64,000 nucleotides of DNA from Escherichia coli (GTDB lineage: Bacteria; Pseudomonadota; Gammaproteobacteria; Enterobacterales; Enterobacteriaceae): assembly GCF_003334315.1 (NCBI RefSeq), contig NZ_QOWR01000005.1, one strand, 5' to 3'. A program made the position numbers and the translations under genes. The notes beneath the pieces were generated by a model. It saw nothing but the letters and a program-made list of their open reading frames with translations, was not told the DNA's origin and searched no databases. Shown here piece after piece: positions 3,018 through 59,732 of this stretch (position 1 is the first letter of the stretch; every line of letters starts with the position of its first letter).

Positions 3018-3719
3018 CTGAACACACCGGCACAGCTCTCTTTGCCACTTTATCTTCCTGACGACGAAACCTTTGCAAGTTTCTGGCCGGGGGATAACTC
3101 CTCTTTACTGGCCGCGCTGCAAAACGTGCTGCGTCAGGAACATAGCGGTTACATCTATCTCTGGGCACGAGAAGGCGCGGGGCGCAGTCATCTGCTGCAC
3201 GCGGCTTGCGCGGAATTGTCGCAGCGTGGCGATGCGGTGGGCTATGTCCCGCTGGATAAACGCACCTGGTTTGTTCCGGAAGTGCTCGACGGTATGGAGC
3301 ATTTGTCGCTGGTCTGTATCGACAACATTGAGTGTATTGCAGGCGATGAGTTGTGGGAGATGGCGATTTTCGATCTCTACAATCGAATTCTGGAATCGGG
3401 CAAAACACGGTTGTTGATCACCGGCGATCGTCCACCGCGGCAGTTGAATCTGGGATTACCGGATCTCGCGTCGCGACTCGACTGGGGGCAGATCTACAAA
3501 TTGCAGCCACTTTCTGATGAAGATAAGTTGCAGGCGCTACAGTTACGCGCGCGTTTGCGTGGTTTTGAACTGCCGGAAGATGTGGGGCGTTTCTTGCTGA
3601 AGCGGCTCGACAGAGAAATGCGCACGCTATTTATGACGTTGGATCAGTTGGATCGTGCGTCGATTACCGCGCAACGTAAGCTGACCATTCCGTTTGTGAA
3701 AGAAATTCTGAAGTTGTAG
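3018..3719 (+). CDS. hda: DnaA-inactivating AAA+ protein Hda (RIDA), non-canonical CTG start
   Basis: ORF encodes ...[35 protein letters not shown]...; known Hda N-terminus MNTPAQ begins at CTG 3018-3020; longest ORF (GTG 2973) would add 15 residues. Confidence 0.85.
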
Positions 3720-3733
3720 ATAAGGTGTTTATT

Positions 3734-3827
3734 GTCGGATGCGGCGCGAACGCCTTATCCGAACTACGCGAAGTTAATCCATAGTATTCGTAGGCCGGAT
3801 AAGACGTGGCAAGCGTCGCATCCGGCA
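3734..3827. repeat. REP/BIME extragenic palindromic elements (two units)
   Basis: gtcggatgcggcgcgaacgccttatccgaactacg and gtaggccggataagacgtggcaagcgtcgcatccggca; canonical REP palindromes between convergent hda and yfgD. Confidence 0.85.
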
Positions 3828-21886: not shown

Positions 21887-22031
21887 ACTGGTTATTCCTT
21901 TAAGGGGTGAGTTGTTCTTAAGGAAAGCATAAAAAAAACATGCATACAACAATCAGAACGGTTCTGTCTGCTTGCTTTTAATGCCATACCAAACGTACCA
22001 TTGAGACACTTGTTTGCACAGAGGATGGCCC

Positions 22032-22910
22032 ATGTTCACGGGAAGTATTGTCGCGATTGTTACTCCGATGGATGAAAAAGGTAATGTCTGTCGGGCTAGC
22101 TTGAAAAAACTGATTGATTATCATGTCGCCAGCGGTACTTCGGCGATCGTTTCTGTTGGCACCACTGGCGAGTCCGCTACCTTAAATCATGACGAACATG
22201 CTGATGTGGTGATGATGACGCTGGAGCTGGCTGATGGGCGCATTCCGGTAATTGCCGGGACCGGCGCTAACGCTACTGCGGAAGCCATTAGCCTGACGCA
22301 GCGCTTCAATGACAGTGGTATCGTCGGCTGCCTGACGGTAACCCCTTACTACAATCGTCCGTCGCAAGAAGGTTTGTATCAGCATTTCAAAGCCATCGCT
22401 GAGCATACTGACCTGCCGCAAATTCTGTATAATGTGCCGTCCCGTACTGGCTGCGATCTGCTCCCGGAAACGGTGGGCCGTCTGGCGAAAGTAAAAAATA
22501 TTATCGGAATCAAAGAGGCAACAGGGAACTTAACGCGTGTAAACCAGATCAAAGAGCTGGTTTCAGATGATTTTGTTCTGCTGAGCGGCGATGATGCGAG
22601 CGCGCTGGACTTCATGCAATTAGGCGGTCATGGGGTTATTTCCGTTACGGCTAACGTCGCAGCGCGTGATATGGCCCAGATGTGCAAACTGGCAGCAGAA
22701 GGGCATTTTGCCGAGGCACGCGTTATTAATCAGCGTCTGATGCCATTACACAACAAACTATTTGTCGAACCCAATCCAATCCCGGTGAAATGGGCATGTA
22801 AGGAACTGGGTCTTGTGGCGACCGATACGCTGCGCCTGCCAATGACACCAATCACCGACAGTGGTCGTGAGACGGTCAGAGCGGCGCTTAAGCATGCCGG
22901 TTTGCTGTAA
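22032..22910 (+). CDS. dapA: 4-hydroxy-tetrahydrodipicolinate synthase
   Basis: 292 codons from ATG 22032: [47 protein letters not shown]... Confidence 0.97.
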
Positions 22911-22926
22911 AGTTTAGGGAGATTTG

Positions 22927-23961
22927 ATGGCTTACTCTGTTCAAAAGTCGCGCCTGGCAAAGGTTGCGGGTGTTTCGCTTGTTTTATTACTCGCTGCCTG
23001 TAGTTCTGACTCACGCTATAAGCGTCAGGTCAGTGGTGATGAAGCCTACCTGGAAGCGGCACCGCTTGCGGAGCTTCATGCCCCGGCTGGAATGATTTTG
23101 CCGGTGACCTCCGGTGATTATGCAATCCCGGTGATCAACGGTAGTGGTGCTGTCGGTAAGGCGCTGGACATTCGTCCACCAGCCCAGCCGCTGGCACTGG
23201 TTTCTGGCGCGCGTACCCAGTTCACGGGCGATACCGCTTCATTGCTGGTGGAAAATGGTCGTGGCAATACTCTGTGGCCGCAGGTGGTTAGCGTGCTGCA
23301 GGCGAAAAACTACACCATCACCCAACGTGATGATGCTGGTCAGACACTGACCACCGATTGGGTACAATGGAACCGTCTGGACGAAGACGAGCAGTATCGT
23401 GGTCGTTATCAAATCTCTGTTAAGCCGCAGGGTTATCAGCAGGCGGTTACGGTTAAACTGCTGAACCTGGAACAGGCGGGCAAACCGGTTGCAGACGCGG
23501 CTTCCATGCAGCGTTACAGCACGGAGATGATGAACGTTATTTCCGCCGGTCTGGATAAATCTGCCACTGACGCCGCGAACGCTGCGCAAAATCGTGCCTC
23601 CACCACTATGGACGTACAAAGTGCAGCTGATGACACCGGTTTACCAATGCTGGTCGTACGCGGGCCGTTCAATGTGGTTTGGCAACGTCTGCCAGCGGCG
23701 CTGGAAAAAGTGGGCATGAAAGTGACCGACAGCACCCGTTCGCAGGGCAACATGGCCGTAACTTATAAGCCGCTGTCTGACAGCGACTGGCAGGAACTGG
23801 GCGCGAGCGATCCAGGCCTGGCATCCGGTGACTATAAACTGCAGGTTGGCGATTTAGATAACCGCAGCAGCCTACAGTTCATCGATCCGAAAGGTCATAC
23901 TCTGACTCAGAGTCAGAACGACGCGCTGGTAGCTGTCTTCCAGGCTGCGTTTAGCAAGTAA
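22927..23961 (+). CDS. bamC: outer-membrane lipoprotein BamC (BAM complex)
   Basis: 344 codons: [28 protein letters not shown]... with lipobox LLAAC. Confidence 0.96.
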
Positions 23962-23967
23962 AAATAC

Positions 23968-23994
23968 AGGGCTGGAATCATCCGGCCCTTTTTT
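23968..23994 (+). terminator. intrinsic terminator after bamC
   Basis: Stem agggctgga/tccggccct (one G-U), loop atca, followed by T6. Confidence 0.75.
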
Positions 23995-24004
23995 CTGATA
24001 TGAT

Positions 24005-24020
24005 ACGCAAACGTGTGCGT
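24005..24020. promoter_or_regulatory. PurR operator (pur box) of purC
   Basis: acgcaaacgtgtgcgt, 15/16 match to ACGCAAACGTTTGCGT, in the purC upstream/leader region. Confidence 0.75.
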
Positions 24021-24066
24021 CGGCAGGAAAACGCGATTTTAGCGGTAATTCGCACGAAATTTGTTT

Positions 24067-24120
<54 letters not shown>

Positions 24121-24173
24121 CACCAGACAGCAAAAGATTTTAAAACGTTAATTCACACCCAGGAGTGATAAAG

Positions 24174-24887
24174 ATGCAAAAGCAAGCTGAGTTGTATCGT
24201 GGTAAAGCGAAAACCGTATACAGCACGGAAAACCCGGACCTGTTGGTGCTCGAATTCCGCAATGATACGTCAGCAGGGGATGGCGCGCGCATTGAGCAGT
24301 TTGATCGCAAAGGTATGGTGAACAACAAGTTCAACTACTTCATTATGAGCAAACTGGCTGAAGCGGGTATCCCGACTCAAATGGAGCGTCTGCTCTCCGA
24401 TACCGAATGTCTGGTGAAAAAGCTGGATATGGTGCCGGTTGAGTGTGTCGTGCGTAACCGTGCTGCGGGCTCTCTGGTGAAACGTCTTGGAATCGAAGAA
24501 GGTATTGAGCTGAACCCGCCGCTGTTCGATCTGTTCTTGAAAAACGACGCCATGCACGATCCGATGGTCAACGAATCTTACTGCGAAACCTTTGGCTGGG
24601 TAAGCAAAGAGAACCTGGCGCGTATGAAAGAGCTGACCTACAAAGCGAACGACGTGCTGAAAAAACTGTTCGATGATGCTGGTCTGATTCTGGTCGACTT
24701 CAAGCTGGAGTTTGGCCTGTACAAAGGTGAAGTCGTACTGGGCGATGAGTTCTCTCCGGACGGCAGCCGCCTGTGGGACAAAGAAACGCTGGAGAAAATG
24801 GACAAAGACCGTTTCCGCCAGAGCCTCGGTGGCCTGATCGAGGCCTATGAAGCCGTCGCCCGCCGCCTGGGTGTACAGCTGGACTGA
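24174..24887 (+). CDS. purC: SAICAR synthetase (phosphoribosylaminoimidazole-succinocarboxamide synthase)
   Basis: 237 codons from ATG 24174: [37 protein letters not shown]...; SD aggag 24161-24165. Confidence 0.97.
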
Positions 24888-25054
24888 TTTTTCTGTTCAT
24901 CATCTTGCCGTGCAGCTGGCACGGCAAGACAACCGCTCTCGGAAGATGTGCATTGAACGCTCATTCCTCCGCCATTTCATCCCGCTTTCCTGTGGTAATC
25001 TTCCTCTGAACCACCTACGATCATTTCTATAATGAATATATTGTTGAGGTATCT

Positions 25055-25918
25055 ATGCGTTGGCAAGGGCGACGTGAAAGTGACAATGTTGAAGACAGGC
25101 GCAACAGCTCTGGTGGTCCGTCTATGGGCGGTCCCGGTTTTCGCCTGCCAAGCGGTAAAGGCGGGCTGATTTTACTGATAGTCGTGCTGGTTGCAGGCTA
25201 CTATGGCGTTGATTTAACCGGGTTGATGACCGGGCAGCCGGTTTCTCAACAGCAATCAACGCGGTCAATTAGCCCAAATGAGGACGAAGCCGCAAAATTC
25301 ACCTCAGTGATTCTGGCAACCACGGAAGATACCTGGGGACAACAGTTCGAAAAGATGGGTAAGACCTATCAGCAACCGAAGCTGGTCATGTACCGTGGAA
25401 TGACGCGTACCGGATGCGGGGCGGGCCAGTCCATAATGGGGCCGTTCTATTGCCCGGCGGATGGCACGGTTTATATCGATCTCTCCTTCTATGATGACAT
25501 GAAAGACAAACTTGGCGCGGATGGCGATTTTGCCCAGGGGTACGTTATCGCCCATGAAGTCGGTCATCATGTGCAGAAACTGTTAGGCATCGAGCCGAAA
25601 GTTCGTCAACTGCAACAAAACGCGACGCAGGCGGAAGTGAACCGCTTATCTGTGCGTATGGAACTCCAGGCCGACTGTTTTGCCGGTGTCTGGGGGCATA
25701 GTATGCAGCAGCAAGGCGTTCTGGAAACCGGCGATCTGGAAGAGGCGCTGAATGCGGCGCAGGCCATCGGCGATGACCGTTTACAACAGCAAAGTCAGGG
25801 GCGAGTAGTACCAGACAGTTTCACTCATGGCACTTCTCAGCAACGCTACAGCTGGTTTAAACGTGGTTTCGACAGCGGCGATCCGGCACAATGCAATACT
25901 TTTGGTAAAAGCATTTAA
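25055..25918 (+). CDS. ypfJ: predicted membrane-anchored zinc metalloprotease (zincin fold), function unknown
   Basis: 287-codon ORF; N-terminal TM helix [16 protein letters not shown]; HEVGH motif at codons 167-171 (nt 25553-25567). Confidence 0.9.
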
Positions 25919-25932
25919 CTTCCGGGGCAGGG

Positions 25933-27948
25933 ATGGCTGAACTGACTGCGCTTCACACATTAACAGCGCAAATGAAACGTGAAGGGATCCGCCGCTTACT
26001 GGTGTTGAGCGGGGAAGAGGGTTGGTGTTTTGATCATGCGCTTAAGTTACGTGATGCCTTACCTGGCGACTGGCTGTGGATTTCGCCGCAGCCAGATGCT
26101 GAAAACCACTGTTCTCCCTCGGCACTACAAACTTTACTTGGGCGCGAGTTCCGGCATGCGGTATTCGACGCCCGCCACGGCTTTGATGCCGCTGCCTTTG
26201 CCGCACTTAGCGGAACGTTGAAAGCGGGAAGCTGGCTGGTTTTGTTACTCCCTGTATGGGAAGAGTGGGAAAACCAACCTGATGCCGACTCGCTGCGCTG
26301 GAGTGATTGCCCTGACCCTATTGCGACGCCGCATTTTGTCCAGCATTTCAAACGCGTACTTACGGCGGATAACGACGCTATCCTCTGGCGGCAAAACCAG
26401 CCGTTCTCGTTGGCGCATTTTACTCCCCGTACTGACTGGCACCCCGCGACCGGCGCACCACAACCAGAACAACAGCAACTCTTACAGCAGCTACTGACCA
26501 TGCCGTCGGGCGTGGCAGCGGTAACTGCTGCGCGTGGGCGCGGTAAATCGGCGCTGGCAGGGCAACTCATTTCTCGTATTGCGGGCAGTGCGATTGTCAC
26601 CGCGCCCGCAAAAGCGGCAACGGATGTACTGGCACAATTTGCGGGCGAGAAGTTTCGCTTTATTGCGCCGGATGCCTTGTTAGCCAGCGATGAACAAGCC
26701 GACTGGCTGGTGGTCGATGAAGCCGCAGCCATACCTGCGCCGTTGTTGCATCAACTGGTATCGCGTTTTCCTCGAACGTTGTTAACCACTACGGTGCAGG
26801 GCTACGAAGGCACCGGACGTGGTTTTTTGCTGAAATTTTGCGCTCGCTTTCCGCATTTACACCGTTTTGAACTGCAACAGCCGATCCGCTGGGCACAGGG
26901 ATGCCCGCTGGAAAAAATGGTTAGTAATGCACTGGTTTTTGACGATGAAAACTTCACCCATACACCACAAGGCAATATCGTCATTTCCGCATTTGAACAA
27001 ACGTTATGGCGAAGCGAGCCAGAAACGCCGTTAAAGGTTTATCAGTTATTGTCTGGTGCGCACTACCGGACTTCGCCGCTGGATTTACGCCGGATGATGG
27101 ATGCACCAGGGCAATATTTTTTACAGGCGGCTGGCGAAAACGAGATTGCCGGAGCGCTGTGGCTGGTGGATGAGGGGGGATTATCTCAACAACTCAGTCA
27201 GGCGGTATGGGCAGGTTTTCGTCGCCCGCGGGGTAATCTGGTGGCCCAGTCGCTGGCGGCGCACGGCAGCAATCCACTGGCGGCGACATTGCGTGGACGG
27301 CGGGTCAGCCGGATAGCAGTTCATCCGGCTCGTCAGCGGGAAGGCACAGGGCGGCAACTTATTGCTGGTGCTTTGCAATATACGCGTGACCTCGACTATC
27401 TTTCGGTGAGTTTTGGTTACACCGGGGAGTTATGGCGTTTCTGGCAACGCTGCGGTTTTGTGCTGGTGCGAATGGGTAATCATCGTGAAGCCAGCAGCGG
27501 TTGCTATACGGCGATGGCGCTGTTACCGATGAGTGATGCGGGTAAACAGCTGGCTGAACGTGAGCATTACCGTTTACGTCGCGATGCGCAAGCTCTCGCG
27601 CAGTGGAATGGCGAAATGCTTCCTGTTGATCCACTAAACGATGCCATCCTTTCTGACGACGACTGGCTTGAACTGGCCGGTTTTGCTTTCGCTCATCGTC
27701 CGCTATTAACATCGTTAGGTTGCTTATTGCGTATGCTACAAACCAGTGAACTGGCATTACCGGCGCTGCGTGGGCGTTTACAGAAAAACGTCAGCGACGC
27801 GCAGTTATGTACCACACTTAAACTTTCAGGCCGCAAGATGTTACTGGTCCGTCAGCGGGAAGAGGCCGCGCAGGCGCTGTTCGCACTTAATGATGTTCGC
27901 ACTGAGCGTCTGCGCGATCGCATAACGCAATGGCAATTTTTTCACTGA
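25933..27948 (+). CDS. tmcA: tRNA(Met) cytidine acetyltransferase (helicase-like ATPase + GNAT)
   Basis: 671-codon ORF MAELTALHTLTAQMKREGIRRLLVLSGEEGWCF...; Walker A AARGRGKSALAG. Confidence 0.93.
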   Translation: MAELTALHTLTAQMKREGIRRLLVLSGEEGWCFDHALKLRDALPGDWLWISPQPDAENHCSPSALQTLLGREFRHAVFDARHGFDAAAFAALSGTLKAGSWLVLLLPVWEEWENQPDADSLRWSDCPDPIATPHFVQHFKRVLTADNDAILWRQNQPFSLAHFTPRTDWHPATGAPQPEQQQLLQQLLTMPSGVAAVTAARGRGKSALAGQLISRIAGSAIVTAPAKAATDVLAQFAGEKFRFIAPDALLASDEQADWLVVDEAAAIPAPLLHQLVSRFPRTLLTTTVQGYEGTGRGFLLKFCARFPHLHRFELQQPIRWAQGCPLEKMVSNALVFDDENFTHTPQGNIVISAFEQTLWRSEPETPLKVYQLLSGAHYRTSPLDLRRMMDAPGQYFLQAAGENEIAGALWLVDEGGLSQQLSQAVWAGFRRPRGNLVAQSLAAHGSNPLAATLRGRRVSRIAVHPARQREGTGRQLIAGALQYTRDLDYLSVSFGYTGELWRFWQRCGFVLVRMGNHREASSGCYTAMALLPMSDAGKQLAEREHYRLRRDAQALAQWNGEMLPVDPLNDAILSDDDWLELAGFAFAHRPLLTSLGCLLRMLQTSELALPALRGRLQKNVSDAQLCTTLKLSGRKMLLVRQREEAAQALFALNDVRTERLRDRITQWQFFH

Positions 27949-45736: not shown

Positions 45737-45764
45737 CGCTTACCCTGAATATTCAGGGTAAGCG
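45737..45764 (+). terminator. perfect 28-bp palindrome downstream of maeB (probable terminator hairpin, or operator)
   Basis: cgcttaccctgaat|attcagggtaagcg, perfect 14-bp arms, 19 nt after the maeB stop, followed only by gttt. Confidence 0.5.
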
Positions 45765-59687: not shown

Positions 59688-59732
59688 CCTGTCGGAGGTG
59701 CCGGGTGTCCTACAACACCCGGCATTAACATC

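Follow-up and report, generated by a model that had tools for sequence, protein, structure and literature searches.

What does a perfect hairpin do just behind the purC gene of Escherichia coli when the sequence that follows it is not a run of U residues? The window, by which we mean the whole 64-kb stretch of DNA that was analysed, comes from an E. coli chromosome on which dapA, bamC, purC, ypfJ and tmcA all lie on the + strand. A 301-nt query around the hairpin found a match in every one of the 5426 complete E. coli genomes, in some at 100% identity. The operon list of the Dar & Sorek group contains dapA-nlpB and tmcA-ypfJ but assigns purC to neither of them. The features of the locus are as follows.

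22014-22910, + strand: dapA
22924-23961, + strand: bamC
23968-23995, + strand: canonical intrinsic terminator of bamC, with a 9-bp stem at 23968-23989 and then TTTTTT (terminator scan, published Term-seq)
24174-24887, + strand: purC coding sequence, 237 aa, stop codon TGA at 24885-24887 (ORF list, RefSeq annotation of a 100%-identical E. coli chromosome)
24903-24929, + strand: purC hairpin, with left arm 24903-24913, loop AGCTG 24914-24918 and right arm 24919-24929 (folding, haplotype invariance)
24930-24937, + strand: tail CAACCGCT directly after the 11-bp stem, lacking a U-tract (sequence, terminator scan, tail score)
25055-25918, + strand: ypfJ coding sequence, the next gene downstream on the same strand (ORF list, RefSeq annotation, PF04228 Zn_peptidase)
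25933-27948, + strand: tmcA

Other elements were noted on the upstream side of purC. A PurR operator, ACGCAAACGTGTGCGT, lies at 24005-24020, directly past the bamC terminator, and a REP-type palindrome occupies about 24060-24125, between this operator and the purC start codon. The latter gave a sub-threshold Rfam naRNA4 match at 24077-24121 and contains an inverted repeat (24064-24072/24102-24110).

A stable hairpin without a U-tract

Re-reading of the sequence confirmed the sequence-only reading of 24904-24928 as CTTGCCGTGC-AGCTG-GCACGGCAAG, a 10-bp perfect stem. One extra T-A pair (24903/24929) lengthens the stem to 11 perfect bp enclosing the 5-nt loop, and 16 nt separate the purC stop from this extended stem. 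Seven of the 11 pairs are G-C, a G+C-rich composition such as the stem-loop part of an intrinsic terminator requires. Folded in isolation the hairpin reached -19.5 kcal/mol, and the nearby canonical terminators were less stable (about -15 kcal/mol). When it was folded within 355 nt of mRNA, pairing probabilities stayed at 0.996 or above for the ten inner pairs and came to 0.84 for the outermost T-A pair, while the 81-nt fold around the hairpin gave a z-score of only -2.3. Perfect stems of at least 11 bp with loops of 3-8 nt were found at 3 loci in the 64-kb window, against 0.1 expected from dinucleotide shuffles. The purC hairpin is more than a chance occurrence. No second copy of the hairpin 25-mer was found within the 64-kb window with up to 3 mismatches allowed, and an Rfam search at the hairpin matched no family, sRNA families included. 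Two further long perfect palindromes were noted in the window, CGCTTACCCTGA-ATAT-TCAGGGTAAGCG (12 bp, 45737-45764) and TGCCGGGTGT-CCTACA-ACACCCGGCA (10 bp, 59699-59724).

For a canonical intrinsic terminator we required a U-tract of at least 5 T in 8 nt, starting 0-2 nt past the stem. Counted from the 10-bp stem, the purC tail reads ACAACCGC and contains 1 T in 8 nt; its Carafa-type tail score of 0.06 was the second lowest among the 63 loci scored. A U-tract is thus absent after the purC stem, which does not qualify as a canonical intrinsic terminator. The sequence before the stem is T-rich (TGATTTTTCTGTTCATCA), not A-rich, and an A-tract is absent. A consensus terminator scan of the + strand did not call the purC hairpin and found no other terminator-like site in the purC-ypfJ spacer; about 900 nt further upstream, the bamC terminator was picked up by the same scan. 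The earlier statements that no U-run follows the stem, and that the hairpin is unlikely to be a canonical intrinsic terminator, both hold on these grounds.

Several other roles were considered and rejected. A terminator serving the opposite strand is not supported, as the minus-strand tail AUGAUGAACAG also lacks a U-tract and a convergent gene is absent. A 3'UTR-derived sRNA of the Hfq type was set aside because a U-tail and an Rfam sRNA match are both absent, and an RNase III site because an 11-bp stem would be too short for it.

Conservation of pairing and turnover of sequence

The segment carrying the hairpin (allele A) is present in 3806-3807 of the 5426 complete E. coli genomes (~70%), always as a single copy and always at this locus. 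In the other ~1620 genomes (~30%), positions 24897-24962 are replaced by a ~830-bp block encoding VapB and VapC, a tRNA(fMet) endonuclease.

24897-24962, no strand assigned: purC-ypfJ allele A block containing the hairpin, 66 bp (genome comparison)
677-1506 of the example locus L001: vapBC replacement cassette

The left junction of the swap lies 9 nt past the purC stop and the right junction just before ATTCCTCCGCC (24963). The vapBC block opens with a perfect hairpin of its own, TTTAGCCGGAG-GGTA-CTCCGGCTAAA, at an equal distance from the purC stop. Both allele hairpins are inside the swapped blocks and not at the junctions, the left junction preceding either one. The hairpin of the vapBC allele is followed by a partial T-tract (TGTCTTTG), and the terminator scan calls it terminator-like. 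No homology was detected between the allele A block and the vapBC block or cassette ends, their alignment being no better than that of shuffled sequences. In strain HH97 (L089, 620-800) we found a decayed and diverged vapBC cassette that has lost most of the vapBC genes and has none intact; this remnant has kept a shortened but perfect hairpin, TTTAGCCGG-GGGTA-CCGGCTAAA, after purC. An AGCCGG...CCGGCT core is shared by the vapBC-allele (B) hairpin and its post-purC counterparts in Citrobacter and Pseudescherichia vulneris, and the A hairpin was found, among the loci compared, only in E. coli and E. albertii. From this distribution the B type looks the older of the two.

These comparisons also disposed of several origins for the element. 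It does not belong to REP or another repeat family, as it occurs once per genome in 3806 genomes and nowhere else. A mobile-element origin was rejected in the absence of any true plasmid or phage match (two 'plasmid' matches were 4.9-Mb mislabelled chromosomes). Nor is the hairpin a scar, operator or junction of the vapBC cassette, given the lack of homology and its position off the junction.

Within E. coli allele A the arms showed no variation in the haplotypes analysed, and variation over the whole segment was high. Besides the window, 24 allele-A sequences were read; 14 (the window plus 13) were analysed and correspond to 10 haplotypes. Among these, 14 of 81 positions (17%) vary, an unusually high proportion, and the 22 stem positions are free of variable sites (hypergeometric P = 0.007, 10 haplotypes). 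Two variable sites are in the loop, which reads AGCTG, TGCTG or TACTG, and a polymorphism hotspot with 9 of 17 positions variable lies immediately 3' of the stem (24935-24951). The sole stem change in E. albertii, C24913 to T, turns the closing pair into G.U. Invariance within E. coli reaches 5-6 nt past each arm, and something besides structure may therefore be constrained.

A purC-anchored scan covered 80 loci, of which 63 (Enterobacterales) were scored for hairpins. In Enterobacteriaceae with purC-ypfJ synteny, all loci carry a strong hairpin 8-40 nt past the purC stop. The spacer in these loci is mostly 120-190 nt long, and the hairpin is its strongest local structure (-12 to -35 kcal/mol). 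The hairpin sequence is genus-specific: the arms are GCCAAAGGATG...CATCCTTTGGC in Enterobacter, TGAGCCGG...CCGGCTCA in Citrobacter and CAGAGGGTGC...GCACCCTCTG in Pseudocitrobacter, and Kluyvera, Phytobacter and Leclercia each have a post-purC hairpin sequence of their own. T-tracts are poor (1-4 T in 8) in Escherichia, Citrobacter, Enterobacter, Leclercia and Kluyvera and canonical in several more distant lineages.

Covariation was scored on 13 alignable hairpins from Enterobacter, Leclercia, Pluralibacter and Pseudocitrobacter. In this set 88% of the cells are paired, and 6 of the 11 pairs show double-sided (compensatory) changes. The covariation score was 0.295, compared with 0.145 ± 0.031 in shuffles, none of 500 of which reached 0.295, and with 0.049-0.133 in slid controls. 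The genus-specific sequences, the compensatory changes and the invariant E. coli arms together argue that base pairing, and not sequence, is the feature under selection at the post-purC position. Because pairing is conserved while sequence is not, a function of the RNA structure is favoured and a protein operator disfavoured.

A PurR-box-like 16-mer (ACGCAATCGTTTACGT or ACGCAAACGATTACNT) was observed directly past the purC stop and upstream of the hairpin in ~21 non-Escherichia Enterobacterales (L026, L029, L030, L034, L035, L037, L039, L042, L045, L047-L050, L052, L055, L057, L061-L063, L070 and L078). It lies 2-40 nt past the stop (about 3216-3255 in most loci), and E. coli lacks it at this place. 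Where present, it could be a 3' roadblock or serve control of the downstream gene.

The downstream tract and published transcript ends

From the stem to the ypfJ start there are 125 nt with a C/G ratio of 1.75, and within them two overlapping features were distinguished.

24950-25043, + strand: C-rich, G-poor, rut-like tract, made up of 78-nt windows starting at 24950-24966 with C/G of 2.7-3.4 (composition scan)
24986-25033, + strand: ypfJ upstream block, with TGGTAA at 24993-24998, a 17-nt spacing, TACGAT at 25016-25021 and then TATAAT at 25028-25033 (cross-genus comparison)

The 78-nt window from 24960 contains 33% C and 10% G (C/G of 3.25; the 99th percentile in the 64-kb window is 2.1), and C/G is about 3.3 for 78-nt windows that start at about 24956-24960. 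Windows starting at 24950-24966 passed a RhoTermPredict-like rut criterion, and when C/G of at least 2.5 was required in addition only 0.2% of windows across the 64 kb did so. The C-rich tract overlaps the conserved ypfJ upstream block, and its rut-like composition may therefore reflect promoter constraints.

Across genera the conserved part of the ypfJ upstream block is TTTCCTGTGGTAATC...AACCACCTACGATCA, and the TATAAT is only loosely conserved. The TATAAT had earlier been taken for the ypfJ promoter; the motif is present, although one position further along than given (25028-25033, not 25027-25032), and its assignment is uncertain with the conserved TGGTAA-TACGAT block just upstream. By its conservation, TGGTAA-17 nt-TACGAT may be the real promoter of ypfJ or a regulator site.

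Transcription of purC is repressed by purines in LB. Published transcript ends were placed on the window by the map NC_000913.3 = 2596905 - (w - 24887), where w is the window position. In the Term-seq data of Adams et al. 2021 (PMC7815308) the bamC terminator ends at 2597798/9(-), which corresponds to window 23994-23995 and so validates the map. The Adams 2021 Term-seq tables for LB OD 0.4, LB OD 2.0 and M63 glucose hold no end in 2596xxx, and the expected base of the purC hairpin (about 2596855-2596863, - strand) is absent from the Rho table of that study as well. These lists comprise about 900-1200 ends per condition, and 23% of the LB OD 0.4 sample is gene-terminal. With lists this sparse, few gene-terminal ends among them and purC repressed in LB, the missing purC end is a weak negative. 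A literature search for the purC transcript 3' end returned no positive report.

Dar & Sorek 2018 (PMC6061677) mapped transcript 3' ends in E. coli and report that Rho-dependent transcripts end precisely at stable stem-loops. These stem-loops resemble intrinsic terminators in stem, loop and energy, and the ends show reduced U, no upstream A-tract and an enrichment of C over G downstream; trimming back to the stem-loops is the work of PNPase and RNase II. The purC hairpin shows every sequence-level feature of this class of Rho ends.

Function of the hairpin and comparison with known systems

We favour, with slightly better than even confidence, the view that the purC hairpin is the protective 3' stem-loop of a monocistronic purC mRNA, with Rho ending transcription in the C-rich spacer. 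RNA polymerase would read through the hairpin, at which little intrinsic release is expected because there is no U-tract, and ribosomes would come off at the purC stop, 16 nt ahead of the stem. The untranslated C-rich, G-poor RNA of about 24950-25040 would then load Rho, which would end transcription diffusely within the promoter and 5' region of ypfJ. The resulting tail would be trimmed to the base of the stem by PNPase and RNase II, and the stem would set a stable 3' end at about this point and shield the purC mRNA from decay. Such an arrangement would keep PurR-regulated purC transcription out of ypfJ-tmcA. The sequence-only reading had offered a 3' stabilising hairpin, a processing site or a protein-binding element as possible identities. 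Of these the stabilising role fits best, as judged from the covarying pairing, the arms that stay invariant next to a variable loop and flank, and the adjoining rut-like tract. The protein-binding element is not supported: from one genus to the next, and again in the other E. coli allele, a palindrome of different sequence takes its place, which is not expected of an operator. Against the Rho reading stand the lack of a mapped 3' end in the Adams 2021 tables, which weighs little, and the coincidence of the C-rich tract with the conserved ypfJ upstream block. Moreover, the distance from stem to ypfJ start leaves little untranslated room for Rho, and the invariance beyond the arms suggests that the constraint on a protective stem-loop is perhaps not purely structural.

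Two alternatives keep the hairpin in an RNA role. The hairpin might be an intrinsic terminator of a weak, non-canonical or decaying kind that causes some pausing or termination, perhaps aided by NusA/NusG, and whose U-tract has eroded in Escherichia. By the established model of intrinsic termination, however, release is not expected from a hybrid as rich in G+C as ACAACCGC, and we consider this reading unlikely: the single T in 8, the tail score and the uncalled Term-seq end all speak against it, even though the counterparts in Klebsiella sp. BIGb0407, Shimwellia, Brenneria and Photorhabdus carry a full T-tract (T8 = 5-8), those of sister genera are followed by a partial one (T8 = 3-4) and the vapBC-allele hairpin is called terminator-like with its tail TGTCTTTG. 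We give a similarly low probability to an intercistronic stabiliser or processing boundary in a purC-ypfJ-tmcA read-through transcript, where RNase E would cut downstream and the hairpin would block 3'-5' decay of the purC segment in the manner of a REP, so that the genes are expressed at different levels. Here the three genes lie on the same strand with short spacers, no canonical terminator separates purC from ypfJ, and E. coli operons are known to use protective stem-loops for programmed differential decay (PMC5927463); yet operon lists separate purC from ypfJ-tmcA, and a conserved promoter-like block precedes ypfJ. This account and the protective stem-loop of a monocistronic purC mRNA differ only in how the downstream RNA end arises.

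The remaining alternatives do without a selected RNA structure. That the hairpin is a neutral relic, intact by chance and without current function, is consistent with the lack of an experimental signal and with E. coli evidence of only 10 haplotypes, but we think it improbable, as the arms are invariant amid a spacer that is 17% polymorphic (P = 0.007) and a hairpin has been kept independently in both alleles, in the decayed remnant and in every genus examined. A DNA-level element, either the operator of a dimeric protein or a hotspot for recombination or insertion tied to gain and loss of vapBC, is highly improbable. It would account for a perfect palindrome inside a block that is swapped for vapBC in ~30% of genomes. 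However, the pairing is conserved with compensation and the sequence is not, the opposite of what an operator predicts; the hairpins lie off the junctions, block and cassette share no homology, and the block occurs once per genome, with no copy on plasmids or phages.

A more speculative extension, to which we assign a small chance only, is that selection maintains the purC hairpin as an insulating module, which unrelated sequence can supply anew, with the two E. coli versions forming a stable dimorphism. Were this so, the version without a U-tract would rely on a composite hairpin-plus-Rho mechanism, purine-regulated flow into ypfJ-tmcA would be set at this point, and alleles A and B would differ in regulation. 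That the palindrome itself is a DNA site involved in cassette exchange is more remote still.

The purC hairpin is real, selected for pairing and not a canonical terminator, and it is an ordinary element of an already described kind; the vapBC dimorphism and the hairpin turnover with covariation are neat, yet fit well-known patterns. Importance beyond annotation is small. Confirmation of the protective stem-loop would establish where the purC transcription unit ends and add one more case of a protective stem-loop without a U-tract at a Rho-dependent end. The locus is also a clean, small example of selection for RNA structure, with fixed position, replaced sequence, compensatory changes and two unrelated alleles, and the purC-ypfJ spacer could provide a natural test of how well hairpins with and without a U-tract insulate a downstream gene.

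Set beside canonical intrinsic terminators such as that of bamC, the purC hairpin is alike in its G+C-rich perfect stem, its short loop and its place just past a stop codon. It differs in having 1 T in 8 where the bamC terminator has 6 consecutive T, and in that bamC has a Term-seq end at 2597798(-) and the purC hairpin has none in the same tables. With the REP/BIME stabilisers it has in common that it lies outside genes, is palindromic and could block 3'-5' exonucleases, but it is single-copy and lacks a REP consensus and any Rfam or naRNA match. At trp t/t', reportedly described by Mott, Galloway and Platt in 1985, Rho-dependent termination occurs downstream and is followed by 3' exonucleolytic trimming to a hairpin. 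The logic proposed for purC is the same, with termination downstream and a hairpin that would set the mature 3' end; trp t, however, has a U-run and some intrinsic activity, and the purC hairpin has no U-run and would have little intrinsic activity. With the Dar & Sorek class the purC hairpin shares a stable post-gene stem-loop, low U, no A-tract, C over G downstream and a non-REP character.
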